Source: Psilocybe cubensis (lineage: Eukaryota). From it: 64,000 nt of DNA. Shown here in pieces: positions 12,450-33,663 of this stretch. The translations under genes and the position numbers were made by a program. The stretch is taken from the NCBI GenBank assembly GCA_017499595.2, contig CM039005.1:2852001-2916000 (forward strand), read 5' to 3'. Within the stretch, counting starts at the first letter, position 1; each line of letters opens with the position of its first letter. The notes beneath the pieces were generated by a model. The model searched no databases. It was not told the origin of the DNA and saw nothing but the letters and a program-made list of their open reading frames with translations.

Positions 12450-15400
12450 AAAACATGAGATTTTAGATGGTGAGCCTTTTCCGTTTAAAATTCCCGCACC
12501 GTCTTGCTATCAACAGTTCAAACCAAAACACCTCATCACTATGTAGAAAAATTTGTTATATTTGAAAAATTCAATATTACATACGTTTTGAACAGAAATG
12601 CTTGTTTTGAAGCTTGAGTTATAGTAGGAAAACACAACTTTATTCCTGTTGGACCTTTGTGTATGTTAACGCTCAGGCATTACTGTAAGTCAGCAGTTTC
12701 CAGGAGGTAGTGTTCTGAACGACCTTCACGCTATGTGCTTTAAATATTAGCAACAGAATTTGCTTTTTGTTTGTTACTACGTGTTTCAATAGTCACAAAA
12801 TCAGAGTTAGATAACGAAGTACCTATCTGCCTTCGAGGTACGATGGGAATCCAGTACAATTTACTGTAGGGGTTAACAAAGGATCTAGTCCCTTGACCGG
12901 CCATCAACCTCTTCCAACACAGTGATCTCTCTTATCAGAAAGAGGCCGATTGTACACGCGGGTAGATTGATCGAGATTTTCTTTCGCCACTGGACGGAAT
13001 CGCGATTTAGAAGTGCTTCGTCCCTGCGGATTTGGATAATATACATGCTACGAACACCACAGTGACCTTACCTCCTCAACGAGGTTGCAGGACATAAACT
13101 CTGTTTGATTTGACTGGCATGTTTTGTAAAACATGTACGCTTCTGTATCGAGGTAAACAACTTAGCGCTCACGCTCTAAGCCTCAACCACACAGCATGCA
13201 CCTCACGCAGTGGAGTGCGTATCTATCTTCGCCTTTTGTTTGTGTGTGCATTGTCGGAGTTATCTACAGGAGACGTCGGATGGCGCATCTCCCACCCGAG
13301 GATGTAGAATTTCAACCGGAACTTAGGTTCCATTCCACGAGGTGTTATCTTTCGGTCTTTAGTGCGTCTTAAACCACCCAAAAGACGCAAAAAGGAAATT
13401 GCAATGCAACTTCCTGGGAAACGAGATGACATTCACGATTGTGTTTAGGTTGGAGAATTGAATCAGGTATTTCCTGGTAGGACAAAGGGCGGTTGTACCT
13501 CAGAGAACCTTAGAGAGCCTCATGTCGCGTGTTGTTATAACGTTCTTTGTTGTTTAAAGAATATATATACAAGTGACCCATTCAAGTATCGTTATCCCGT
13601 ATTTGAAGAATAGCAAATCATCTTACCCATACTCGTATCCCTCTTCCATCTTCTCCCCCATCGAGGACTCCAGCACGTCTAGCATGCCTACCTTTCGCAA
13701 TGCACCAAGAAAGTACCCAGAAAGTTCTCATCAAGCCAACGGAAAAGGCTCAAATCAAGCCAGCGGAGAAAACTCAAGTCAAGCCAACGGTGAGAAGCAT
13801 GCTGGTCATTCATCGATGTGCCACTCACAATGATTTATAATATCTGACGTCTTCTACAGATTTTATGGCATTCCTAGACTTTGGTATCAGCGACAATTAC
13901 CCCAGTGTTAACCCTGAGGACATGCTGTCCACAGGCCCCGTGTTTGATCCAGATCTTCTGGATTCATTGCATTCATCACTCTACATCCCTGATTTGAGCC
14001 GCAACCTTCATAACGAGCGATCCAAGTCAGCTCATTTCCCAACTTTAAGTGCCAACTCAGGGTTAAATATGGCGACGTATCCGACAATGGGTCGCAGCCA
14101 CACGTCACACGATACGCCGACTGTGGCATGCGCGTCAGTGGAACATCCTGTGTATGTGTATGCGTCAAGTGCTGGAGGTGCACCAACGTTTTTGAGCAGT
14201 CAGGGAGGGGAAAATGCTTGGACACTACCCATACTCCTGACAGCTTCGAAGATACGGAGTGATCCTAACGAGATCGATGGGATAGACGTAGAGATGGAGT
14301 CTGTCCCCGATGCTCGACGCGAGGAAGATATCGAGTGAGTTTCTTCCACTGCGTTTCCAGCGCTCTATCCGTCCGTTTTCTTACAATGCCACCACTCCCA
14401 CATAGCGTCGAAATGTTATACATCAGTGAAAAGATATTCGAGTATCCAGGAGGCCGTGATATTCTTACGACACCATTGGCCCGGAACCCTCTTCCATCGT
14501 CTCCCCCATCGAGGACTCCAGCACAATTAGCTCTTCTACCTCGAATAGCACACCAGATAACCATGCAACTGGTTCAGGTCAGGACATCAAGGGTGAGAAT
14601 TATGCCGGTTGTTCATCAATGTGCCACTCACAACGATTTTGCAGTGTTGACCTCGGCGGAATTTCTGCAATCGTTAGGCTTCGATATCAGTAGTCTTGAC
14701 CTCAATGGTAACATGGAGGTTATACTACTGTCAATCGCCCCGAATTCGAGGAAGCTCTTATATCGAGCACTCCGATCCAGCATATCTGCCTCCATCGAAT
14801 GCGAGTCAGGAGCTACCTATGACGAAGTATCCGACGATGGAAACTATCCAGACGTCACACGATACTCGCTACCGAGTCTCGTTCAAGGAGCCCAAGGAAA
14901 GGCGCCAGTCGGATGCCTAAAGGTCGCACCCGCGATCAAGATACGACGTATGCAGCGTTACTTTTTACACACCTGAGAATTCTCTAAAATTTGGCCTTTT
15001 TCGCAGAGATTAACGGAACCAAGGGTCACTGGACCCGTCAACCGTGTTCGGCGATGGCAATGGTGGCGGGCCTATACCAGGCGAAGTGAAAAAGGAGGGT
15101 AAACAGGGCAAGTGATATGATCACTTGCTATTCCAGAACCAAGCGCCAAAATCCCAGAAGAATGTGGGCCACCTGTGATACCTGCATGAAAAGGCGCGGA
15201 CAGACCAAATACTGACATTGGACCACAAAATAAACCCAAGTGAGTACTCACTCGTGTATCCTTCCCCAATCATAAACTGACTATTTCCCAAGTCTTTCCA
15301 TAGTCGATGATGCCTCGGAAATAGTCCAGACGAAAGAATCAACGTAGAGAGGAGAGATATGCGTAGTTATATCTTACTGGCGCGTCCTAGGAATCGATAG

Positions 15401-17955: not shown

Positions 17956-18447
17956 TTATCCCAGTTTTGTACACTCAAAAGACGCAATCCTTCGGTAACG
18001 GGGTGGGACACCAATTCTGGGTAGGTTGGCAACATCCCCGCTGAAAGATTGTTCGGGGCCTATGCACTCGATAAAGCTGGCAGGGAAAGTAAGTTAAAGA
18101 TGATGGACACACAGTGGCAGGAACTGACGCATAGAATGCACAAGAATAGCCAGAGGAAATTTCCAAACTCTCCGGTCTGTTTTGCCTACCGAGCGGGAGG
18201 TCGATACAAAAATCGGGGCCGGAATATATAGGAGAGTATGAAGTACCGCGGAAAGAGGTGTACTCATAAAATGTAATGGACATTTCATCGGGGTCCTGCT
18301 TTAGTGGAGTAGGCTACTGTATTAGTGAGAATAACATGAATATAGCGAACATTAACATACCCGCACAACAGTGGGAACGGCTTGTGCAACCATAGTCGAG
18401 GACAGTGCTCCAAAGAGCAGAGCAATAAGGTTAACAGTGAATTTCAT
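17956..18447 (-). CDS. Small secreted protein, beta/gamma-crystallin-like (killer-toxin-like) fold, 3 exons, intact
   Basis: Spliced product: MKFTVNLIALLFGALSSTMVAQAVPTVVR/DPDEMSITFYEYTSFRGTSYSPIYSGPDFCIDLPLGRQNRPESLEISSGYSCAFYA/FIECIGPEQSFSGDVANLPRIGVPPRYRRIASFECTKLG*. It has a signal peptide, a Y/FxxxxFxG Greek-key-like motif, 4 Cys and a terminal SFxC. Confidence 0.8.
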
Positions 18448-19212
18448 GTCCGTGAGAGCTGACAATGAAGAAATCGTTTGGGGTAGCGAGTCAAGCGATT
18501 TGCTGAGGACCTTTATGCTTGCTGGACGCGATTCCTCCAACTTTGACACAGAATGTATAAGAGTCTAATATTAATATTGACAAATCCAACATTGGAATGG
18601 AACAACCCATGAGCCGAAATCAGTGTGAAATTACAAAAATATTATTTAGTACTGATGTCGGAGGTTGTTAATTCTACGTGTTCTAACTTCTAAGCCTTAT
18701 TAGCATTCATTAAATACAAATGATTTTACTTCATAGAATATTCTAGTACAATCTCCGGGACTGAACTCCTATCCCAAGACTCCGTAGTACTTAAGGATTA
18801 GGTACACAATTAATAACAAACTTTTTGGATTCCCCTCTCGGATATAGCCTACGTCTCGCTCTCGCGCGCGCCCTCGTCGTCTTGTCCCCTGCGGTGATTC
18901 GAAGCTAGCGTGGTAGCTTACACCGCCATCTCGTCTCGTCGTGCTCCGTCTCGTTTCGTGTCTCTATCGTTTGGCTAGAAGCCGTGTGGAGCACGCTCGC
19001 TCACACACGCGTTCTGCGAGTCTTGTAGGTGTTGTTGGGTTGTTTCCCACGCCCTCAGGAGCTCGTTGAGCGTATCAGCGGCATATCTCACTGTAACACA
19101 TTCACATATTGTTGGCCAGGATGCCAGTAGACATATCCCAACTGCATTGGAGTACCTGATTTACCTTTAACCAAAACCAGTTCCAATCAATTGTGGTGAT
19201 TAGAGTGTGACA

Positions 19213-19516
19213 CAAGGGGCCCTCCCCGGAGCTTACCGAGAAATCAACCCTACCCTTGAGGTCAAGGGAGTGGCTGTGTTGCTGGTGCGGCAGAGCCTGA
19301 AGCTTGAAGGCCTGACAAGTCACAAGCAAAACTGCCATTGCACATAATTATATTGTGGTTCACGTAGACCTATGTGAACATATTGTAAGCCGACAAAGCA
19401 TGCACTTCTGTCGTCAATATTTGAGGTATAATCATTGGATTGTCGCTCAACACAGCCACTCCCTTGACCTCAAGGGTAGGGTTGATTTCTCGGTAAGCTC
19501 CGGGGAGGGCCCCTTG
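19213..19516. mobile_element. 304-bp MITE with perfect 69-bp TIRs and 8-bp TSD
   Basis: 19213-19281 is the exact reverse complement of 19448-19516 (CAAGGGGCCCTCCCCGG...). GTGTGACA flanks both sides (19205-19212 and 19517-19524). Confidence 0.93.
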
Positions 19517-19747
19517 GTGTGACATTTGCGAGTGTCAAGCTATGAAGCCACGTTGATACCGACAGGAGACCGCCGCTTAGACACTAGATATGTGACTTGC
19601 TTGTATTTCTCACAGGGCACCATAAAAATTGTTTGTTGACAGCCTATCTTATCTACTGGAGCATCTACATATTTATCTGTGCGTTTTTTAATCGCTTCGA
19701 ATTTCGAACGCATCATTTTCCATACATAATGCATAAAGGAAGATTGT

Positions 19748-19868
19748 CTAAAAGTCTCTTGTGCACACAAAGGACTTGATGTTTCGGAAAAGGACAGGGT
19801 CACCAGTTGTGGGAAGGTGGGAAACTTCCCCGCTTAGTGATCGTCCGTGGCCTTGGCATAGAACAAAG
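19748..19868 (-). pseudogene. Detached exon 3 of the second crystallin-like secreted protein gene (exons 1-2 at ~32209-32535)
   Basis: Encodes FVLCQGHGRSLSGEVSHLPTTGDPVLFRNIKSFVCTRDF*, which is colinear with exon 3 of the 17956-18447 paralog and is preceded by a TCCAG acceptor. Confidence 0.9.
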
Positions 19869-19959
19869 CTGGACACCTGTAATTACCCTGCTTATATATA
19901 AAACCCTTGCACTGCAATAAAATGCTCCATACATGGCAGCAGGCACTTGCTGCATGGAT

Positions 19960-20500
19960 AATCTATTATCCATTTACTTAGTCTGCCTATCAATTATCCA
20001 TTCCGTTATCCAAGAGCCTTGTTATCCATTATCCATTCCCGTGTGCGCCATTAACAATTGTTTCTATCCATTGTCCGCCGTATCATCCAAAGGGTACATT
20101 ATCCATAGCCCCGCTTCATGATCCAACAGCCGTTATCCATTTCTGTGCGCGCCATTAATAATCTATTCCATCCATTGTCCGCTGTATTATCCAAAGGGTA
20201 CATTATCCATAGCCCCGCTTCATAATCCAACAGCCGTTATCCATGTCTGTGCACCCCATTAATAATCGATTCCATCCATAGTCCGCCCTCTTATCCAAAG
20301 GGTATATTATCCATATACCCCTGAATTATCCAACTGCCCACTATCAATTTCCATGCAAACCATTCATGACCCGCTCTATCCATCATCTGTATTCTTATCC
20401 ATGGGTCATTTCCCCCTTTCATACCACGATATTCATTGCCCTGCGATTATCCAAGAGCCGTTTATCCACTCCCCTGCGCCTTATTCAACACTATCTTCCA
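19960..20500 (+). repeat. Left subterminal array: about 3 copies of a 104-bp unit, dense in TTATCCAT/ATCCA
   Basis: atccata recurs at 20101, 20205 and 20309. Confidence 0.9.
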
Positions 20501-20692
20501 AGAAAACAATTACAATTCCAAGAAAACATACACTATAAATATACAGAATCACTAAAAGGATGTCAAGATGTACAAGGTACGTTCTGTCTGCATCAGCTGG
20601 ATGCGAGCGCAATAAAAAGCTCAAGAGAATTGAAAAAAACAGTCTGAATGTCCAAGATCACGTGTCAAAAACAAATGCCAGCGCATCACGCC

Positions 20693-23544
20693 TCAAGCCT
20701 TCGCTTTCTTTGTTCTTTTTTCCTTCCCAGTTTCCTCCGCCGCCTTCCTCTTGTTGTTCAGTTTCGCCTTTTGGAAGGTGTTGAAGGTGTTGAGTAGGTC
20801 ACTTACTGCTAATTCCCAGAGACCATCCGAGGCTTGAGCCGAGTACCACCACTTTAACCCAACCATCACTGTCAACAGCCCATTGGGTCCACCTTTCCGT
20901 AACGAAGCCATTGAATCTTTTGCCTTCGCAGTCTCGAACGACAACGGAAGGGAATTCGGGGTTTTGGTTTGACGCCACGCCGGCTGTATGGAGTTCCACC
21001 AGGTCATCCATGACTTCTGAAATTCGTCTTGACGGATAGCTGGGATAGCGGTGTATTTGCGGGATGAGGAAAGCCATTTCCCGAGGGCTGTTGGTCTGCC
21101 TTTCGCGGGGAGCCTCAACTGCAACGGTAATCAGTATCTTTATCTGCTTTTGTGCATGATCCGGGACTCACAGAACTCGTATCCATCTCAGCAATTTCCA
21201 TTCTCTCGAAACTCTCCCATGCGCGCACACATTCCTGCCATTTTTCTACCTCGATATCTTTGAATAGATATTCACTCGCTGCCAACAGCCATGCTGTGGT
21301 CTGTGGAGCATCCTTCGAAGCTGCTGCCTTTCTGTTACGACTACGCGTTGCACTGGCGTCCAAGTTCTCGCTTTTGTCTGGAGCCGCAGTCAAAGGTGCA
21401 TGCATGCCACTCTCGGGAATAATTGGATCGTTTACTGCATGGTTGGATAGAACTCCAGCTGAGTTTGTGGCGCTGAGCACTGGCGCTGACGTCTGGGCAG
21501 GGACTATGGTGTGAGGTGCTGAGATGGAATGGTTTGGGTCCAATAGCATCGGTGCGTTTGCCTGTCCTGCCATCATATCCTGACTTTGTAACATTTGGCC
21601 ATGTAAACCAGGAAGCGTCACTGTGTTGTTTGTGTTGAGGGCAAGTGCGGTTCCCATCATGTTTGGATCCGCTGCGTACTGTTGCAGGGCCAGGTCAATT
21701 CTATCCCATTCCTCTTCTGAAAAGTTCAAGGTAAGTCCATCGCCCCTATTCGCATCACCCGCTTGTAGCCGCATCATATCCTGGCCTACAGCAGCTGTCA
21801 ACTGGTCTATGTCTTGGCCACCAACTCCATCCGTCATAGAAATGGCAGCACCATAAGGCAAGAACGCAGCAACTGGATTTGGGGCCACCTTGGCCTGTTG
21901 AGGTAGAGGATTGGCAGGCGGAAGGAAGTTTTGTGCCTCAATGGTAGCGTGGGTAGCACCATTTGTAGCTGGGTAACAAGGTGGGCTTGGACTTGCCACA
22001 CTTTGAGTCGGTTGCACCTGAGCTGGTTGGACTGTGCTTTGTGTCATGACAGGAGCCTGAGCAAAGCCGATGGCCACCGCCGGCGCCGCTGTCATAGAGG
22101 CCATTGCAGTCTGTTGTGCGGCCTCAGGGGGAGTATGAGCTGCAGTTATGGTGTTTGGAATAGGGCCAGAAAGCTGAGCGGCACTTCCCATGTGAGCATT
22201 GGTTGATGAGATGGGTACTGATGCAGCTGTATAAGTTGGATGGAAGGGCACCTGATTGATAGCAATTGGAAGGCCAGAAAGCTGAGCGACACTGCCCATG
22301 TGAGCATGGGTTGATGAGGTGGGGACCAACGCAGCTGGGTCGGGCACCTGATTGACAGCGATTGGAAGTGCATTGCTCTGAATCTCTGGTTGTGTAGTCA
22401 CAGGGGGAGTTGTTTCCGACAAGACATTTTCTTGCCCTGCGTCGCCGGTTTCAACTTTGCTGGTACTGGCAACTTGGTTCTCTTCTGGCTTTGCCTTTGA
22501 GCTATTGAGAGTTTGTCGGTCGCGATCCTCTTGCGCTAAAGAAAATGGTTGATTAGGTCACTATGTGTTAGAAATACAGATAAATTGCTCACAGAAAACA
22601 TTGTATAAAAAAAGTCTGAACGGCGATAGCACATGTTGGTAAAAATGTTCATTCGCAATAGAAAACAGTTGTTCATATTTGTCTCGACCGTTGTGGACAG
22701 CGACAGTACGAATTTTGCCTTGATCAGCAGGCTCAGGTCCTCCAGCAATTACTGTGAAAACCCATCCGGTACGACTGCTCATTTCATCTATAAACGCTTG
22801 GATAGTTTCCGGCAATGTCAAGAGATTACTAACTTTGTATCAGTAAGACTTTAGCACAAAGAATAGATCACTTACATTGCGCATTCTTCTGGAGACATGA
22901 CTTCCGGCATGTCAGGAATTTGTCCCTTCAGCTCCTTGAGCTTTGCCAACTCGGCACGAATTTCCGCCTTTACCTCATCAGACTCGTCATTCCAGGCCTC
23001 CCCGGTGCACTTGTTGATGATTGCAATTCGGTGACCTTCAGGATTGGTGCGGAGAGCCTCTATTACTCGTGGCCTAATGCGTTCATCATAATATTTCTTG
23101 GAATACAAATTTGTTTCCGAGAGAAGTCGGGGAGCGTTGTTGCCACCAATAACAATGGTCGGACCTCGCCGATGTTGGGTGCCGGCCCCACGATTATTAA
23201 ACCAATTAACAATTTGCTGTTACAAATATGACCTCGTCAAAGAAACTCATACACTAAGTATGAATTGTGCTTACGTTTTTCCGCAACTTAACCCATTCTG
23301 CATGAGAAAGTTCGGTTTTCGTTTGAGGCAAAACAACAGGTGCATTTTTCTTTTTCTTCTTCTTTTTTGGAACAGTCATTGGTCTAACTTCAGCCTCAGG
23401 CGTAGGCCACAAGACAAAAAATTCTTGGTATATTTTTGTCCAAAAATTGGGGGTGGTTTTTGTACGCTGGGACGCCTGGAACTCAGGAACCTTGGCGGAT
23501 AGAAACTCAATTTGTTCGGGAGTCCCCCACGGTAGCGGCGGCAT
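20693..23544 (-). CDS. Transposon accessory protein 1 (about 5 exons): homeodomain-helix-like and HMG-box-like segments, low-complexity middle, Trp-rich C-terminal domain
   Basis: Colinear exon ORFs 23254-23544 (FWTKIYQEFFVLWP), QIVNWFNNRG, 22872-23108 (YSKKYYDERIRP...EAWNDESDEVK), 22561-22821, 21115-22422 and 20693-21124 (WWNSIQPAWR...GGPNGLLTVMVGLKWW). Confidence 0.75.
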
Positions 23545-23846
23545 TTTGATCTAAGTATAGCAGTTGTTCTAAGAATAAATGAATGTCAAATTGTTTGTTT
23601 TTTAAGCGCACGCAAACTCACCTCAAATAACAGAGTTAGACTTAAGGTCCAGAAAATGCAGTAAGACCTTCTAGCTACTTCTTCGATTTGACGGCAATAG
23701 CTTGCTTACATTATTGAGAGATTCACCGCAATTTACCGTGTAACTGTACAGTTGCTGATGCTTCTTTGGACTCTGCATATAAAGATGCTCCTATCTGCCG
23801 CAATCTTATCCTTAACTCCCTACTCGCAAAAAAAACCTCTCACAAA

Positions 23847-24916
23847 ATGGCTCAACAAAGTACACCTCCCCCAACTCTCCCTAATTCTACCGTCCCTCCC
23901 TCTACCGCCCCTGCAAGCCGTATAATGTCTACCCGTGTTGGCGACGTTATCAATCTCCTTCTTGCACTAAACAATGCTGGTACGTGCCCATTTTTGAGTT
24001 TCATGTTAATTTCAACTTGTTTACATTTAATCAGGATTAGAAGTTGTTCGTACACCCGATGGCGTTGATCATGCTTCAGGGTTGGAAAACCTTGCCATGG
24101 GGGAGCTTATCTTGATTCTCCAAATCATGGGCATTCATGTCAAGGGTAATCGCGCTACTGCTGCACCCCCTCCTCCTTCTGATAGTAAGTCATCTTCGAC
24201 TCCCTTTAACCTAATGTTTTATTTAATTGGACTGTAGGCCGTGATCCCTTGGTCCAAGAGATTGAACAGATGGTTATTTCATCTGCTCGTCGTCAGGCTA
24301 TTAATCTTTTCTTTAGGCTTACCAATGGGCCGTTGAGTAAGTGAACACTGTTCATACTATCATGCTCAGCACAATCTAATTAATTTTAGCCGTCCCACCT
24401 GTCATTCTTGAAGAGTTATCATCAACTGTGGCTCCCCCTCCTTCGTCTGTTGAACCACAGGCCACCGTCACTGATCCTGCCCTACTTCCTCCAAAGTCCC
24501 AGTCTGCCTCCGACACTGTCATGCCCAAAGGCTTTGTGTGCATGTCCTGCAACACGTATAACCCTATTCGCCCATCTGAAAAGCCAGTCTACGTTGTGTT
24601 TTGTGGTACAGATGTGGGGGTCTTTGACCATTGGTATGTTCCACATTCTTTTGAGATTGCATTTTGCTCAATTTAACACATATTTAACAGGAAAGATGCT
24701 CAGAGCCTTGTTTCTGGCATATCTCATGCTTGCCATTGTCGTTATAATAGTCGCGAGGAGGGTGAGAGGGCGTTCCAAGCTGCTTTGACTGCCGGAAAGG
24801 TTCGCATACTTGGTAATCCTATTGCTGCGCCTGGAGCTATTGTCTCTTCCTTGTCCCCAAATGCCCCCAATGGCACCTCTGGCTCCTCCAGCGAGGCCTC
24901 TAGTAGCTCGGATTAA
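23847..24916 (+). CDS. Transposon accessory protein 2 with CxxC motif and RNase H1 N-terminal (Cauli_VI, hybrid-binding)-like domain
   Basis: MAQQSTPPP start. The spliced C-terminus reads GFVCMSCNTYN...VYVVFCGTDVGVFDHW/KDAQSLVSGISHACHCRYNSREEGERAFQAA, matching YxVxxGxxxGV(F/Y)xxW...V.G.......(F/Y).S.EEA. Confidence 0.75.
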
Positions 24917-25266
24917 TGAGTAGACTTACTCCACCCTCGGGGTTTTTCCTTTTCCGTTCAATATCGTGTAGACAGCACCATTTGTCACCGCGTATGAAAA
25001 GTTTCCCCGCACTTTTAGTAGCACCACTTGTATCTCTTGTACATCTCATTTTGATTTCTTGTCTGTGTTTCCGAATATATCTTGAACTTGTGCTGCTCTC
25101 CATATCCGTGTGAATGAAATCTTCAATAATCAAATAAAATATTATTGAATGTCTCTTTTGTAGAGTCATTATATTATGCCATGTACCCCCATGCACCGTA
25201 GCTTCAATGTCGAACGATATACAATGATGTTTGTACTATATTAAAAGTCCAATAGAAGTAATAACC

Positions 25267-25960
25267 CTATTGCGAAACCTTTTGAAATTCAAAGGATTTA
25301 GCATTGTAGTTGCGTTCAACGAATTCAAGGTCTTCCATTGCAGTCAATTCAATCTCTTGCAACCAAGATTGTGTCTTCTCTAGCAGTTTTGCAAGAGCGA
25401 CTGTCTTATTCCACTCTGGGCCAACTCCTGAACACATATATATATGGTTTTTATATCGGGAAATTGGCCCAAGAAAGTGCTCTATCTTGTCAACCGATTC
25501 CGATAATTCGTGCATGTCTTGATTGCTGATAAACTGGAGGCAGATTGCCTCAGTATGTGCAATAGGATCCGATTTGATAAAGGTGTTGAAGCGCCGGTAG
25601 ACTCGAAGAACTTCGTCCAACCAAGTGGCCGCCGGTGGCTTTGACTTGGAGACAGGCTCTTGTTCAACAGCCTGTGCTTTACGTGCCGTTTCAATTCTAG
25701 AAATGAAGATTAATTCAATCTATAGAGATTATGCACATTCATAATCAGCAGGAATACCTTTTTTGTTGGATGCGAGCATATTTTCTTCTGCGACGTCGGT
25801 TTATGCTATCCTTGCATCTAAAAAACATTATAAAACATGTTTGTAACCAGATTTATGGGAGGAAAACAACTGAATGCTACTTCTCATAATATTTCTTGCT
25901 CTTCTGCCTATTTGCGGCAAGTTTCTCAGCTTCAGAAAAATACTTGCGCTGTCGTCCCAT
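25267..25960 (-). CDS. Transposon accessory protein 3, basic N-terminus and helical C-terminus
   Basis: ATG 25960 MGRQRKYFSEAEKLAANRQKSKKYYEK, then introns, then last exon ORF 25267-25620. Confidence 0.65.
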
Positions 25961-26540
25961 TGGTAAAGGTGAAAGCCAGGTAGCGATTTATTAGAAACTT
26001 TGCATTACTTACACGCCATTTCAGGGCTTCGTCTGACTTTTTTAACTACCAGGTAAACCCCCCCTCCAAAGGGTACCAATTGAAACATTGAATTAATCTA
26101 CACTCAACTCTCGTCATCCAGAGCTTTACAACCATCTGTGCCGATGTTCTATGGTTTTTGAACTCTGCAAGATAAGTTTTCAGGCTATGTCTAGACTGGG
26201 ATTGAAAATGTAAAATAATAATAGAAGACCTTACCGTCATCCATTTGTTCGTTGGCTATCAATGGCTGGCAGCACCCTAATGTCAACCTTCAGCTTCATT
26301 ATCCATTTACTAGTCCTTTATTGATTGGGACTTACTTTACCGTCATCCATTCATTCAATTGTTATCCATGAGTTGTTTGCAACACTCTTGTCCTCGTTGT
26401 CCATTTCCTTGCCTGTTATTGATCAATTATTTTTGCTGACTCGCTGCTTATAAGTTGGGATGAACGCCACAAAACTCATCTGCATCACCTTTGACCTGCC
26501 CATAGACACCACTATCGCGTTTATCAGCAACTCACAACCA

Positions 26541-27069
26541 ATGGCCAAGGTTAAGCAAAGACGCCGTCGTACAGATAATTTCAAAGGTCCATCGGTGAGT
26601 AGACTTGAGCCTGATTGTTATAAAATGTGATCATTTTTACTAAATTGTCGTTCAAATTTGTAGGCAGTCACAATAGAGCCCGGCATTAGACCAGTTACAT
26701 TGGATACGAAGTCCAAACAAGACAAATTTCTCGCCGATGCTGGCCCATATTATCGCCAGGCCAAGTCTAAGGGAGAAAAGGAAGAGTTTCTTCACGAAAT
26801 CAGCCAACTTTGGTTTAGAATTTGGCCGGAGGATCCGTTGAATACGGCAGACATTGATTTTGCACGTCACAGACAAAAGAATATTATGAAGGTGAAAGTT
26901 GTGTTTATATTTTTGTATGCCGCTAACTAACGTCTATATGTTACAGAAAATCAGAACAAGGCTGTTACTCCTCGGTGCCTTTGGGATTGTGGAAGGAGAT
27001 ACGTTGTGGAGGGACTTTATTGCTGCCAAAATGCACGAGCTCCATCCTGACAAGCTACCCTCTGTCTGA
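26541..27069 (+). CDS. Transposon accessory protein 4 (3 exons, small)
   Basis: MAKVKQRRRRTDNFKGPS/AVTIEPG...FLHEISQLWFRIWPEDP...NIMK/KIRTRLLLLGAFG...DKLPSV*, with canonical GT-AG introns. Confidence 0.7.
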
Positions 27070-27144
27070 TCTAGCCACTGTTTTGTTCGGCTTAATGTAC
27101 CTACTACATAGTGGTCCAGATTTTAAATTTGCACAAATTATACT

Positions 27145-30100
27145 CTAGTGACACTCAACCATTTTGTATGCATTACGGCCTTCTGACATGGTCGTCAACT
27201 TCTCTGTTACACCATCCCATTGTTTCGCACAACGGTCACCTATATCACGTCGTATATCTGCCTGTTTCTTTGCATAAGCAATCTTACCAGAATTGATAGC
27301 TTGTGCATCTCGGTTAGGTACATCCGTCGAGTCGATGATATCCTGTGCACGAGAATCCCACTGAGCGGCTTGCCAAGCAAAAAAAGCAATAACACGGCGC
27401 ATCTCCTCTGCTAATAATACACACTCCTCTTGCCAGCGATGTGCGCGTGCACGGGCTTTGCACCATTCGATACGAAGAGCTGGACACTAGCATTTGTTTG
27501 CATTCAATTAGGTAAGGTAAAGACAACACACCTGCCTGTGTACACTTTTCGGCGTCTTCGCCCATACCGTGTACCTTCCATATCCAGGACAGTTTCTTGC
27601 GGCCTTCACTTCCAGAGTCGTCCATAGAGCTCAGTCCTCTAACATCAGTGTCCAGCAGTGGACGAAGGATATCACGCCACGTGTAGTATACCGTTGGCGT
27701 TGAAAGCAAATCAAGAGCTTGATACGCAACATTGTATCGCGCTGTTGCAAATTTAATCTTTTCTTCAACAGCTGCGAGCAACGTCAAGCTTCTTGTCTGC
27801 ATACGCTGTCCTCGTGAGTGTCGCTTTTTTGAGTTTAGCATATGTGAGCGAAGGAGTAAGAAAGCACGGAGGTTGTTGAGGCAATCTTCAGCCTGGGCAT
27901 ATCGGTACTGCGATTCGCATTTTAGCAATATGTGGGATGAAAATCGGATGGTTTCTGTGTTGTAGGAAGGCAAATATAGCTTGATATCCTGTACCGCTAC
28001 TGGTGTCTCAGCCTGCAAGTTTTCGCGCGCACGCAGAGCTGCAACTGCAGGCATATAAAGGTGCTGTATATTTATCCAAGCATCAATGCGTCGTTTTAAT
28101 GAGTTTGATCGTTCGAGAATTTTAGTCTGTTGGATGTTCGTAGAATGGGCTCCAAGTTTGGAGATGTCAAGCGCAAGTCGTGCTCTAGTCTTGTTTGTAA
28201 CCATGTAAAAAATAGCCTATAAACGACGTACTGTGATTCCTCAAGCTGTAAGCCCTGTGATATCAAGACACTCGGAGTTACTTCCTCATGTAAAGTAGTC
28301 ATCTCTCCGCGTTTTAATGCATCTGAGTCCTCACGAGCTAATTGAAGACGAACATCGGATTCCTTGACAGAACCTAGCAATGCACCATAAACAATAGAAC
28401 AAGAATCAGAAAAATACACGTACTATTCTTCGGAATCACATAGGGATTCGGTTGACTGGAGTCCTTTTCCCATGTCAAACACATCTGGGTCCATTCCGAC
28501 GTCGATTCTTCTGGCAATGCAGCGTCAAACTCAATGAACGCCTCGACCTGTTCTTGTCGCTCTTGAATAGCTTCCTTCGCTTTCCGTAAAAATGTTTCAA
28601 CTAAAGTGCTTGTCAATATATGTGCATAGATTGCAGAATATTACGACGTACCAATCGTGATAATTTTTCGCCAGTTATAATCTCCAAAATGGTCATCCAA
28701 TGTGTCGTTCCGAGACCCTGGCCCCATTTCCTTTGTGCTGCTGGCTATACCGTTTGCCGTTGCCCATCCTCTCTCTGGTGCCTCCCCATCTGTGCGCCCA
28801 ACTCCCGGAGTATAGTTGAAAGAGAAAGACGTTTGGCATTTCTGAATATGAGCAGCAAGGTGGAATTTTGGTACGAGGTAGACAATGGAGAGATTTGATG
28901 GATCGGAGAGCACATTCTTAGGATATAATTGGCACCTTTTCATGAGATTGATCCACCATTGGCAGGCAATGTCGTAGGAGACAACAAGACGGAGTAAAAG
29001 TGTGGCTGCGATTGTTGATAAGAAGAAATAATCCATATTAACGTATCTACGGCATCATGTGAGTCATGTTGACATGCAAGCATGTGACTGAAGACCTTAC
29101 CTTTCACCCTTTTGTAAGTCTCCTACTGCCACGGGTCGCTTCATGTCGTGTCGACTACATTCGGCTGTACCAAGTCCACTTGCTGCTGTCCCATGTCCAC
29201 CTCGTGAGTTAGCCGATTTGATAGCATCGTGGTTATTGCATGAGCTCTTTTCATCTGCAACTTGACCATCGTAGTTTGCCAAGTAGTTTTTGAATTTGCA
29301 ACTCTCAACCATATAGGCATATCCATGATTAAGCCCAGGGTCTCGCTCATCTGTAGATACGTTCATTCGCTTCAAACGAAAGTTGGCATCAATAGCTATA
29401 AAAAGAGAATAAAGCCATCTATTTTTGGACGTGACAATCAGACCCAATTGCCAGTGGACAACACCAACGAGTAAAAATTGGTACGTACTGTTCTGATTCT
29501 GGCCTCTCCTTCCAATTGTCGGGTAGATTGATGCCCGGGTGGGGACATGCAGGACATAGAACAGCACATTCACCCTCTTTAGTCCCATTAACACCGGTCT
29601 CAGAGTGACCTCGACCCATCCGTTTGAGGAGACGTACATGACGCCACTCACGTATGATCCTCAAGAAGACAGGATATCTGTCCTACATATTGAATATTAA
29701 AGATAGCAGGATAATAGAAGAAATGGAAGAGCTCACTGGTGGTGCCTTTGTGCCGGTGTTGTCTGTCAACCGTGATAATGTAGAGTAATACTCGTATCCC
29801 GAGACCTTCGAGTTAAATGAAAGGAGCTGAAAGTGTTCCAGCACATCAAATGTAGCCGCTGTTTTGGGATCGCCTACTGTAGAAGGAAATAAGCGGGCGC
29901 GAAGAAGTTGGATGGGCTTGGATGGTGCAGAAGGGCACCCGCAGTAGTCTAAGGCAATTTCATGGATTCCTGTACGCGCAATGACCACAAATTCGTCGTT
30001 GAAAGCTACCATTGGTATAGGACAGTCATCATGTCCCAGCTGCACTCGCATTCCAAGTTTCTTGAGGCTGGTCCTGCGAAAGTAATGTCCAGTCCAGACC

Positions 30101-30845
30101 TGCAAATTTGTCAATAATTCAGTATCATCATAGCCAACCCCACTCGCCTCGATTCTATGAAATGGGTTGACCGAATGAGACCGGAGAACACAAGCGAGAC
30201 ACAACAGAGATCCGCTCCAACAGTCTTTGCAGCGAAACGCGCCTGCTTCGAGGTCCGAAATACACCCAATTTCAGAGCATTTCTGGAGATTTGCCTGCCC
30301 ACCAATACCCTCCAGCCGGAGAAACTCTTCAACGTAGGTGTCAATATGCGGAGTCCAGAAGTGGATGGGATGTGTCTAATCGAATATGTGAGTGGTAGGT
30401 GCTGAAACACACATCTATTAGAGCAGGAAACTGTACGTACCGATTGTGTTTTTCGTTTTTTCTGTGGAACCTCTTCTTCAGGATCAGCTTGAACCTTATC
30501 TCCAGTCTTCAAGTTTGGCTTGAGATAATTCTTTAGCCCCAATGCCTCCAATTCGCATTCTGCCATTTCTTCCAACTCAAGATCACCATCAAAAATCCTA
30601 TACGGAGATTCTTCGCTCAGCACCCAATCAAGTCGAGGAGTAGGCGATTCCACAGAGCCTAGAGGAGGGGGTGTGGGAAGCATAGGCTGAATTCCTTGCG
30701 GCAGCGGCATCCGTATGGTATGGTGCGTGCGTCCATGGTATTCAGTGTGAATGTCGCCAAACGATGCTGTTTTCGCGTCTCGTTCATCAGGAGAGATATA
30801 TTCGTCATAATAAACCTTTTTCTTGCGATTCACTCGGCGTTTCAT
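27145..30845 (-). CDS. KDZ transposase with CxC2-like cysteine cluster
   Basis: Exons encode FRCKDC...CLACVLRSH..NPFHRIE, QLGHDDCP, TGIHEIALDYCGC, CAVLCPACPHPGINLP, AIDANFRLKR, ECSRHD...GDLQKGERY, SYDIACQW, VPKFHLAAH, GRTDGEAPERGW and LDDHFGDYNWRK. No stop or frameshift was noticed. One GC-AG intron lies near 30147. Confidence 0.93.
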
Positions 30846-30969
30846 GTTGTAAGTTGAAAGAACCTGCGAGCTAAGTGTATACACAAAAGAGACAAGGAAG
30901 CTTTGAACAGAAACGTCATTTCCAAGGAGACTAGAAGCGGAAACAAGAGGATGTATAACTCATACTGAT

Positions 30970-32065
30970 ATGGATTATTAGCTCAGAGTGGTTGATGGAT
31001 ATTTTACAAGGAAATGGATAGACTTCAAACATTGATGGACAGTAAGGAAAGGTATCAATGACAGTGAATGATGGGAAATGTTACGGGGAACCAAATTAAT
31101 AAGTGCCTGATCTTCACGGGTGACAAGCGGGATGGATTAACGGGAGGCCATGGATGACAAGGGCATTCAATAATCAACGTTGGTATGGATGGAGACTGCG
31201 CACTGCACGGGTGTCAAGAGTGATGGATAAGTAGAGGGGCAATGAATGATTAGGGCAATAAATGAGCGCGATGGATAATGAGAAGAGAAATGGATGTTGA
31301 GGGTGATGAATAATGAACGCACATATCGATAGGCGCCTGCACTACGCGGGTGTCAAGCCTGATGGATAATCAGAGAAATGGATGTCGAGGGCGATCAATA
31401 ATGAATGTGGGAATGGATGAGGGGCAGCCTGTGCAATGGTGGAGGGCGATGGATAATAAGAAAGGCAGTTGATGTCGAGGATGATGAATAATGAACATAG
31501 ATATCGATAGGCGCCTGCACTGTGCGGGTGTCAAGCCTGATGGATAATCAGAAAGGCAATGGATGTCGAGGGATATCAATAATGAACGTACATATTGATA
31601 GGCACCTGCACTGCGCGGGTGTCAAGCGTGATGGATAATCAGAAGGGCAATGGATGTTGAGGGAGATCAGGCTGATGGATAATTATATGGGCAACGGATG
31701 ACAAGGGCAATGAATAATGAACGTACATATCGATAGGCGCCTGCACTGCGCGGGTGTCAAGTGTGATGGATAATCGGAAGGGAAATGGATGTCAAGGGAG
31801 ATCAGGCTGATGGATAATCATATGGGCAACGGATGACAAGGGCAATGGATAATGAACGTACATATCGATAGGCGGGTGCACTGCGCGGATGTCCAGCGTG
31901 ATGGATAATCAGAAGGGCAATGGATGTTGAGGCCCATGGATGACATACTAGTTATGGATTACGAAGGGGTATGAATGACAGCGTGGGTATTGAATAATGG
32001 CTCAGCAGTTTGGGGAATACTATGGATAAAGTTCTAATGTATCTATCATAAAGGCGTTGGATAAT
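30970..32065 (-). repeat. Right subterminal array, ATGGATAA-rich, higher-order repeat of a ~45-bp monomer
   Basis: gataggc recurs at 31328, 31506, 31597, 31732 and 31867 (spacings 178, 91, 135, 135). Confidence 0.9.
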
Positions 32066-32157
32066 TATTGATGGGGAATGCATTGCCGTGGCTCATATAT
32101 GAGGTATGCGCAAGGTCTTCTGGAGGTTGATATATAAGAACGACTGCTACGCCTCAG

Positions 32158-32535
32158 CTGGAAGGGAAATTAAGTTAAGATGTTATATAAGCAGTGGAAG
32201 GAACTGACGCGTAGAAGGCACAAGAATAGCCATTGGAGATGACCAAACTTTCCGCTCTGTTTATCCATTTGGGCGGGAGGGTGATACATAGATCAGGACC
32301 AGAATATTCAGGAAAGTATGAAGCACCGCCGAGAGAGGGTTCGTCAAAAAATATAATGGAGAATACATCGGGGGCCTGGTTTAGTGGTGTGGGCTACTGT
32401 ATTAGTACGAATAACATGAATATAGTAAGCATTAAGAATTTAACATACCCGCGCAACAGGGGGAGCGGCTTGTGCAACCATAGTCGAGGACAGTGCTCCA
32501 AAGAGCAAAGCAATAAGGTTAACAGAGAATTTCAT
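32158..32535 (-). pseudogene. Exons 1-2 and intron 2 of the second crystallin-like secreted protein gene, interrupted by the KDZ element
   Basis: MKFSVNLIALLFGALSSTMVAQAAPPVAR/APDVFSIIFFDEPSLGGASYFPEYSGPDLCITLPPKWINRAESLVISNGYSCAFYA. Intron positions match the paralog. Confidence 0.9.
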
Positions 32536-33663
32536 GTCCGTGAGGGCTGACAGTGAAGAGATTGCTTGGGGTAGCGAATCAAGCAATTTGCTGAGGACCT
32601 TTATTCTCAGCGCTGGCCTCGTTTATATATGTGGATGCAGTCTAGTATTTGATAATACTGCTCATGTTTGACTTCTTAAACATCTCCGACTTCGATAAAG
32701 AATATTCTAGTCTCAGCAGAGCCAACGCATGGAATGGAAGAAACCATGAGCCGAAATTAATATATAGTATTGAATTTTCAATCCTGGGAACACGAACAAC
32801 ACAGAGTTATATACATCTTCTAATCGGGTACGCCACCCTCCACCGTGAAATTTTTCTATAGCATCAAAGATCGTAATGGCATGGGCAACATTTGAGCAGA
32901 AGGCAGATGGTTGAAAGTGCGAAATAGGGTGGTAAGCCTGGAGGTGGAACTGAACTGAGAAAGGTCCTTTCTAGGGAGACAAATATTCTTTGATGCACTG
33001 TGTCGTGTCAACTTTCAAGCGCACTTCTCCTACTGAGCCGCACTACCTTAGGTTAGACTTGGGTTAAATACTGGTTTTAAGTAACACCTCCATTATTCGG
33101 CTCCGGGGTGCCTTAGCGAAAAATAATTTGCGGTGACTAAGCCAAAATAAGAACGCATATTTGCGCACTAATAGACATACTATTTGCAGTGATATTGTTC
33201 CGTACTCGCATGGCAAGACGTCCTGGAGGTGACAAATAGAAGGGTAGCATGAAGCTACCTCGTTTCTTACGAAGAAGCTATGGTGAAGCCATGGAATTTT
33301 GGTTGTAGTACGCGGAAGCGCGTGTGGTTAACAAATATCAAAGAAACGACGGGATACAAAGGATGTAGTGTACCGACTGTTGTCAATACTTTGAATCGAT
33401 AATACTCAGAAGAATCTTTAATACGTAAACGAATATACCTTATGTTATTTCAAGCATGGTCTCATCGGAGGCTTTGGAATGTAGTCTTCATTACAGTCGA
33501 CGATTGTCTTTTGATTATGGCCAGGTATGCTGATACAATATAGTCAGAAATACGTGAGGAATACGGGACAGCGAACGCATGAAAGGAGCTCATACATTTT
33601 CAATAGTCCTCAGCTCATTGCTCCAGTCTCTACTGCACAACAAACCACTCACAAACCATCAAC

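Follow-up and report, generated by a model that had tools for sequence, protein, structure and literature searches.

The 64,000-base window analysed here (the whole stretch taken from Psilocybe cubensis contig CM039005.1) contains, at 19874-32155, an element that we take with moderate confidence to be a young, multi-copy, Kyakuja-type KDZ cut-and-paste transposon, whose two ends carry an AT-rich box in fixed register that would be bound by the transposase. The KDZ transposase is of DDE type according to the Pfam family description, and the label Kyakuja-type is used here on the basis of the domains and the 7-bp duplication rather than a transposase tree. Each end has three layers: outermost, 17-18 bases in which the two tips are unlike, each being of a conserved type; the AT-rich box, which starts at position 18 or 19 and lies at an equal distance from both tips; and arrays of a motif related to the box, which face inward and extend over several hundred bases. 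Relatives have the same arrangement, and the box therefore probably plays a part in the transposase's search for the ends.

The left end reads CACCTGTAATTACCCTGCTTATATATAAAACCC from 19874, and the right end, reverse-complemented from 32155, reads GAGGCGTAGCAGTCGTTCTTATATATCAACCTC. Both carry GTA at 6-8, CTTATATAT at 18-26 and AA at 28-29, and the end sequences and offsets quoted in a first-pass annotation of this DNA are all present in the window. The ends and the insertion site comprise the following features:

19867-19873, unstranded: left copy of the target site duplication (TSD), AGCTGGA; the empty allele keeps one copy
19874-19890, plus strand: type A outer segment (CACCTGTAATTACCCTG), which differs from that of the opposite tip (sequence; related A heads)
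19891-19902, plus strand: left inset box CTTATATAT plus AAA, element positions 18-29 (motif search)
32127-32138, minus strand: right inset box CTTATATAT plus CAA, positions 18-29 from the right tip (motif search)
32139-32155, minus strand: type B outer segment, reading GAGGCGTAGCAGTCGTT in the inward direction, with a signature common to relatives
32156-32162, unstranded: right copy of the TSD, AGCTGGA (sequence, paralogue alignment, empty-allele joint)
17982-18520, plus strand: paralogous uninterrupted copy of the target, an in-window empty site (blastn and flank-to-flank alignment)

On both strands of the window, CTTATATAT has two matches only, at 19891-19899 (plus) and 32130-32138 (minus). 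Shuffled windows contained it 0.49 times on average, with two or more copies anywhere in 11 of 100 shuffles, and of 200,000 random window pairs, 70 had a run of at least nine bases at the same offset within their first 100. The likeness between the ends extends beyond the box: at shift 0 they are identical at 21 of 40, 30 of 60 and 45 of 100 positions, the last value being attained by 2 of 200,000 random pairs, and the other 24 shifts between -12 and +12 gave 16-33 identical positions per 100. When the box is excluded, identity is 36/91, which 459 of 200,000 random pairs attained. The first forward ATTATCCA also lies at nearly the same offset on the two sides (92 on the left and 91 on the right, by hand count on the printed ends). 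The tips themselves form no terminal inverted repeat (TIR), as they are identical at 7 of 18 positions over bases 1-18; one starts with CA and the other with GA, and the Kyakuja 5'-CA..TG-3' pattern is seen on one tip. A TATA-like string in the right flank (32183-32195; reverse complement CTGCTTATATAAC) matches 11 bases of the left end's CTGCTTATATA; it lies outside the element, is missing from the paralogous flank copy, and was taken as coincidence.

The 7-bp TSD boundaries assigned in the first-pass annotation proved correct, and the element is a precise insertion of 12,282 bp between two copies of AGCTGGA. The in-window paralogue reads ...AAAGCTGGCAGGG straight through the site, with AGCTGGC at 18075-18081 as the counterpart of the flanking AGCTGGA; in the alignment, one continuous paralogue takes the left flank 19781-19873 and then the right flank from 32156 (32156-32607 and 18075-18519 share 82.8% identity by blastn). 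In public runs, an empty-allele joint from 19866 to 32156 skips 12,289 bases, with seven letters that fit either side. This joint is present, free of other letters, in one contig each of runs X2, X1 and X7; in X5, 37 raw reads with 31 start places carry it. Because the in-window paralogue and the public-run allele are two independent empty sites, the boundaries can be regarded as exact. Runs X7 and X5 have zero depth across 20082-26997 and therefore lack the element, depth being nil over most of it, and both filled and empty forms are present in X1 and X2. The window possibly comes from runs X1-X4, which therefore do not count as independent evidence; X7 and X5 derive from different samples. 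An X1 contig of the interior (20194-31654) agrees with the window at 0 differences and has a word depth of 38, compared with 8-11 in the flanks, and two X2 contigs agree with the element from 19874 on and carry unlike letters before 19874. We read these observations as several identical copies and a recent burst.

To compare the ends with those of related elements, metagenome contigs were scanned with the KDZ C-terminal exon, which yielded 191 relatives; 80 loci with 55-78% identity were kept, and tips were recognised in 15 of them. The recognised tips are of two conserved types, A (CACC[T/A]G…) and B (GAGGC…TCGTT), and the subgroup box, with consensus T[G/T]ATNNAT[A/C]AA, follows from position 19 after either type. 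A heads of the form CACC[T/A]G occur in L015, L033, L004, L037, L044 and L068, with CACCAC in the L050 family, and the B signature GAGGC..TCGTT occurs in the window and in L013, L014, L015, L021, L026, L033 and L051. Each type is kept across families whose transposases are only 57-71% identical. Recognition thus probably extends to the tips, whose outer 17-18 bases are of two types that families have in common.

For the L013 and L050 families, boundaries were set by comparison of copies and the box was not used, and in both families the box T[G/T]ATNNAT begins at 19 from the tip. The B boundary in L013, L015, L021 and L026 reads GAGGCCAATACGTCGTTT followed by TGATTAAT, i.e., GAGGCCAATACGTCGTTT followed by T(G/C)ATTAA(T/A)AAATCCC, with four different flanks and a variant in L051. 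The A boundary in L050, L043, L073 and L074 reads CACCAC…GGCAGTA followed by TGATATAT or TGATATATCAC, again with four different flanks; left BLAST boundaries in the L050 family were rejected as tips, as they are fade-outs in coding sequence. Locus L015 shows the layout at both ends, with CACCTGAGTATGGCAGAC followed by TGATTAATAAACCC… at 1291 and GAGGCCAATACGTCGTTT followed by TGATTAATAAATCCC… at 13078; its tips are identical at 6 of 18 positions over bases 1-18 and at 11 of 11 over bases 19-29, where an inverted repeat begins (1309-1441 and 12928-13060, 89.6% over 134 bases). The tips of L033 (938..13164) are likewise identical at 6/18 and then 9/11 positions, and in both loci the box opens the inverted repeat after 18 bases in which the tips are unlike. 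In L004, a GAGCC… tip lies at 78 and a CACCAG… tip at 13230, and 21 of 22 bases around the box are identical between its A end and the left end in the window. The alignment of related KDZ termini, which the first-pass annotation had suggested as a check on the offset, therefore places the box at 19 in the boundary-defined L013 and L050 families and in L015 and L033.

Pattern counts across the loci are consistent with a preferred spacing. The AT..AT core occupies 21-26 in 18 of the 20 tabulated ends, some of which were found via the box. When the spacer was varied from 4 to 25, a refined head-to-box pattern gave 10 matches for a spacer of 12, whereas each of the 21 other lengths gave 0-2; a looser pattern gave five at spacer 12, four at spacer 19 and at most two at the rest. 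With the box ignored, GAGGC.{7}TCGTT gives seven matches, six of them with AT..AT at 21-26, and CACC.{6}TGGCA gives 18, seven of them with a full box and most others looking coding. Just outside the A tip of L033, at about 860-930, lies a palindrome with two head-to-head strings like CGTCGTTCTTA, which resemble positions 11-21 of the B end in the window; the palindrome may be the remnants of another element's ends.

Inside the boxes, the element has the following features, where ORF denotes an open reading frame:

19954-20469, plus strand: left subterminal array of ATTATCC(A/T), 16 inward copies in the first 600 bases plus one reversed copy at 19954
20696-25719, minus strand: accessory gene or genes with several exons (tblastn)
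26200 to about 26430-26460, plus strand: small group of ATCCAT-type motifs in the interior, lying between ORF X and the accessory gene
26664-26927, plus strand: ORF X, conserved in 13 loci
27148-30959, minus strand: transposase gene with about nine open exons (Pfam)
31223-32064, minus strand: right subterminal array of ATTATCC(A/T), 13 copies in the first 933 bases, all inward

The array motif is family-specific and, in the window element, is ATTATCCAT, with the arrays inverted between the ends; tandem units of 104 bp (20029-20315) are included on the left and units of 91 and 135 bp on the right. The string TTATCCAT has 33 matches compared with 3.2 expected, of which 11 are at the left end (10 on the plus strand) and 12 at the right end (all on the minus strand). 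Strictly polar arrays are present at both ends of the window element, L015, L033 and L004. The box resembles the array motif of its own family, i.e., ATTATCCAT in the window and L001, TTATACAT in L004, CATTTACAAAT in L015 and ATTATGAAT in L033; in L001, the closest relative (78% amino-acid identity), the array motif is identical, with TTATCCAT occurring 20 times. In the window element, the array consensus is ATTATCCAT..CCCT and the box reads TTATATAT(AAAA)CCCT. The internal cluster at 26200-26460 was considered as a former left end and ruled out, as its box/array order is wrong.

The transposase gene contains a KDZ domain at 28644-29660 (PF18758; two exons exceed the gathering score, with E = 3.3e-40 and 2e-18) and, N-terminal to it, a CxC-type cysteine cluster, the CxC2 domain at 29686-30375 (PF18803, E = 4.4e-40); homologues of its exons are present in up to 80 of the 80 loci. 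In the accessory region, ORFs 20696-21130, 22564-22839, 22875-23219, 23257-23550 and 25270-25719 are collinear and conserved in L004, L015, L033 and L013 (tblastn). This region also includes a low-complexity ORF of 480 codons (21115-22557), for which a search of the 'near' length class only gave no homologue at E <= 0.001. The accessory gene matches no Pfam family above the cut-off, and in Pfam searches neither the ORFs of the element nor the accessory exons of its relatives match Tet_JBP.

The order of these genes distinguishes the window element from its relatives. In all five loci with synteny (L001, L004, L013, L015 and L033), the order is accessory (minus), X (plus), transposase (plus), and in the 13 loci with ORF X this frame lies directly upstream of the transposase on the same strand. 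By contrast, in the window element the transposase block has the opposite orientation with respect to the accessory gene and ORF X, so that transposase and accessory gene share a strand. The inverted block is not obviously a misassembly of the window, because the X1 Logan contig described above spans it (20194-31654) with 0 differences. The relatives also differ in how the interior is placed between the ends: L004 reads B-accessory-X-transposase-A, whereas L015 and L033 read A-accessory-X-transposase-B, and the end downstream of the transposase is A in six loci and B in eight (L014 counted). Recombination between the inset inverted repeats could give rise to such turned interiors. A broader proposal, which we put forward only tentatively, is that in this subgroup the conserved A and B ends must pair, that the inverted repeat is inset by 18 bp and the transposase positioned from inside, and that recombination between inset repeats flips the interior with mobility unharmed, which would explain both gene orientations.

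Under the reading that we favour, in which the transposase is bound to a box in fixed register, the box would be the outermost occurrence of the motif that the transposase binds sequence-specifically, and a protomer on the box would set the catalytic domain at the tip phosphodiester approximately 18 bp away. The arrays may load further protomers, and the unlike outer segments would give end identity, so that each pairing joins an A end to a B end.

Arrangements that resemble parts of this layout are known from other transposons. In piggyBac, the P element, Tn7 and Mu, transposase sites lie inside the tip at defined distances, with several internal sites, and the left and right ends are functionally unlike; these elements keep a short TIR or CA/TG at both ends, and their spacers differ between ends. 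The window element differs from them in having an equal spacer (18) and unlike tips, and the transposase families are unrelated. En/Spm elements (CACTA) have polar arrays of short motifs inside both ends, together with a 13-bp TIR and 3-bp duplications. RAG/Transib recombination signals consist of heptamer, spacer and nonamer, that is, an AT-rich 9-mer at a fixed spacer, with two unlike ends being paired, although the heptamers are alike and the spacers differ. The resemblance of En/Spm and RAG/Transib ends to those in the window is an analogy only, and no homology is claimed. The element is not itself assignable to CACTA/EnSpm, as it has CAC at only one tip, a 7-bp duplication and a KDZ transposase; nor is it a Zisupton element, which would have an 8-bp duplication and TIRs, whereas the window element has a 7-bp duplication and unlike tips.

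Among KDZ elements, Kyakuja is described as having a KDZ transposase, 7-bp duplications and 'No TIRs' (PMC12730594, Biology 2025;14:1741), and the TIR-less state together with the 7-bp duplication is therefore not new, having been published in 2025. Among published TET-carrying Kyakuja, the 36 5' ends compared here start with CAC (23), GAG or GAC (10), CAG (2) or CGC (1), and most have CAG(T/C) at 10-13 (PMC12730594 Table S1). The window element is similar in several respects: its B end, GAGGCGTAGCAGTC, has CAG(T/C) at 10-13 and a GAG/GAC-type start like those 10 published ends, its other tip starts with CA, and, as in Kyakuja, it is large, carries a second gene, and has subterminal repeats, which are visible in the published 5' stretches. 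It differs in that no TET/JBP gene is found by Pfam, whereas those 36 published Kyakuja carry TET, and in its heads, which are CACCTG and GAGGCG rather than of the published CACATAATTCAGT type. A pattern for the published 5' heads, [CG]A[CG]N6CAG[TC], applied upstream of the transposase in our loci gave mostly coding matches and no tips. A shared inset box, two end types and subterminal repeats are unmentioned in PMC12730594, where the word 'subterminal' occurs 0 times in the main text, although the termini in its Figure 1 may show part of this.

Dileera/Zisupton-type KDZ elements share with the window element a KDZ domain with a CxC zinc cluster, a size of about 10 kb, extra genes and recent mobility; they differ in having 8-bp (4-8 bp) duplications, long true TIRs, and CxC1 or CxC4 (10.1101/2024.08.15.608186, 10.1101/2025.05.19.654958, PMC12730594). 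KDZ1-3 of Cryptococcus, for example, are described with TIRs of 139-241 bp and duplications of 4-8 bp (10.1101/2024.08.15.608186, 10.1101/2025.05.19.654958). KDZx1 of Cryptococcus is reported to lack detectable inverted repeats (same two sources) and for that reason might hide a similar layout.

Several points weigh against the box-bound transposase model. Both tips have been read in four elements only (the window element, L015, L033 and L004), as the contigs of L009, L051 and L049 end before the partner tip, and among the 65 of 80 loci in which no tips were recognised, many are short contigs and none was searched for box-less tips. The ends of L004, L009, L037, L044 and L068 were found by queries or patterns that contained the box, and because of this they are not independent evidence for the offset; in L004, moreover, the tip register is off by 1-2 bases, with 4 of 11 positions identical in strict register. 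At the assigned tips of L015, L033 and L004 there is no 7-bp duplication, and a search for 7-mer duplications around the ends of L004 was swamped by TATA-rich repeats; the missing duplications could be due to copies having exchanged sequence or to multi-copy repeats having been assembled into chimeras. The box and the array motif differ at the two central bases, and one protein domain may for this reason not read both. The box is conserved within the subgroup, but T[GT]AT..AT at 19-26 is found in 0 of the 36 published Kyakuja 5' ends compared (PMC12730594; by eye, 5' ends only), and judged from these ends the box sequence is apparently specific to this subgroup. Finally, we infer box binding and cleavage 18 bp away from anatomy and conservation. 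The idea in the first-pass annotation that an internal box is recognised and the DNA cut at a fixed distance thus holds as far as the recurrence of the offset box in relatives, while its binding and cutting steps are deduced and the tips, too, are conserved.

It is also possible, although we consider it unlikely, that the box is a relic of an ordinary TIR or simply the first subterminal repeat, with an inherited offset, and that the tips and arrays alone are recognised. The weak in-register likeness over about 100 bases (45/100) is as expected of a decayed inverted repeat, the box resembles the array motif, and its sequence differs among families. However, the outer 18 bases have not drifted freely, with A and B conserved across the 57-71%-identical transposase families, the repeat always starts at 19 in the boundary-defined cases, and the AT..AT core is at 21-26 in the 18 of 20 ends noted above, the set that includes ends found via the box. 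An improbable alternative is that a host architectural protein of the HMGB kind, rather than the transposase, bends or melts the DNA at the box, a flexible, AT-rich stretch of TATATA type whose distance to the cleavage site is fixed. A weak HMG_box match in one accessory exon (22875-23219, E = 0.0096, below the cut-off) would fit this, but it was dropped, as it is not reproduced in the L004 and L033 homologues, and the co-variation of the box with the array motif of each family fits an element-encoded reader better. It is more doubtful still that the boxes are TATA-box promoters driving inward transcription from both ends, even though both point inward and the left one, TATATAAAA, is near the TATA consensus: the left neighbouring gene runs toward the tip, so that an inward promoter would be antisense, about 1.2 kb separates the right box from the first transposase exon, and the tip-to-box distance is kept despite the turned interior of L004 relative to L015 and L033. 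A chance coincidence of two AT-rich 9-mers is scarcely credible, since the 11 of 100 shuffles with two or more copies somewhere in the window must be set against the 70 of 200,000 pairs that matched in offset and inverted orientation, the 2 of 200,000 that reached the in-register identity, and the recurrence of the same layout in relatives, which contradicts coincidence.

Other repeats were observed in and around the element. The target of the transposon is one of two approximately 83%-identical copies of a repeat of at least 540 bp (17982-18520; 19781-19873 plus 32156-32607). Run X2 also contains a relative of the element that is about 16% diverged and matches over 20029-30434 with several internal deletions, including joints from 20029 to 20496, 21294 to 21829, 26203 to 26534, and 30169 to 30434, among others. 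In addition, a short high-copy element at 19014-19518, with perfect 69-base inverted arms (19213-19281 and 19448-19516), looks like a miniature inverted-repeat transposable element beside the insertion site; its read depth is several-fold over that of the flanks in all four runs, and loose read ends are numerous at 19014, 19077, 19213, 19292 and 19516-19518.

Overall, the KDZ group comprises large transposons with cargo genes, which are plentiful in mushroom-forming fungi and, in Cryptococcus, mobile; Kyakuja has been recorded simply as TIR-less. In the KDZ literature consulted, we did not find a fixed-offset inset box, two end types or two interior orientations, although Figure 1 of PMC12730594 may show part of them. 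The inset box and the two end types would provide a concrete, testable model of end recognition. The combination of head motif, 12-13-base spacer, box and polar arrays may also serve as an annotation signature for elements missed by repeat-based finders, and a polymorphic, multi-copy and apparently intact element such as this one would be a starting point for a transposition assay.

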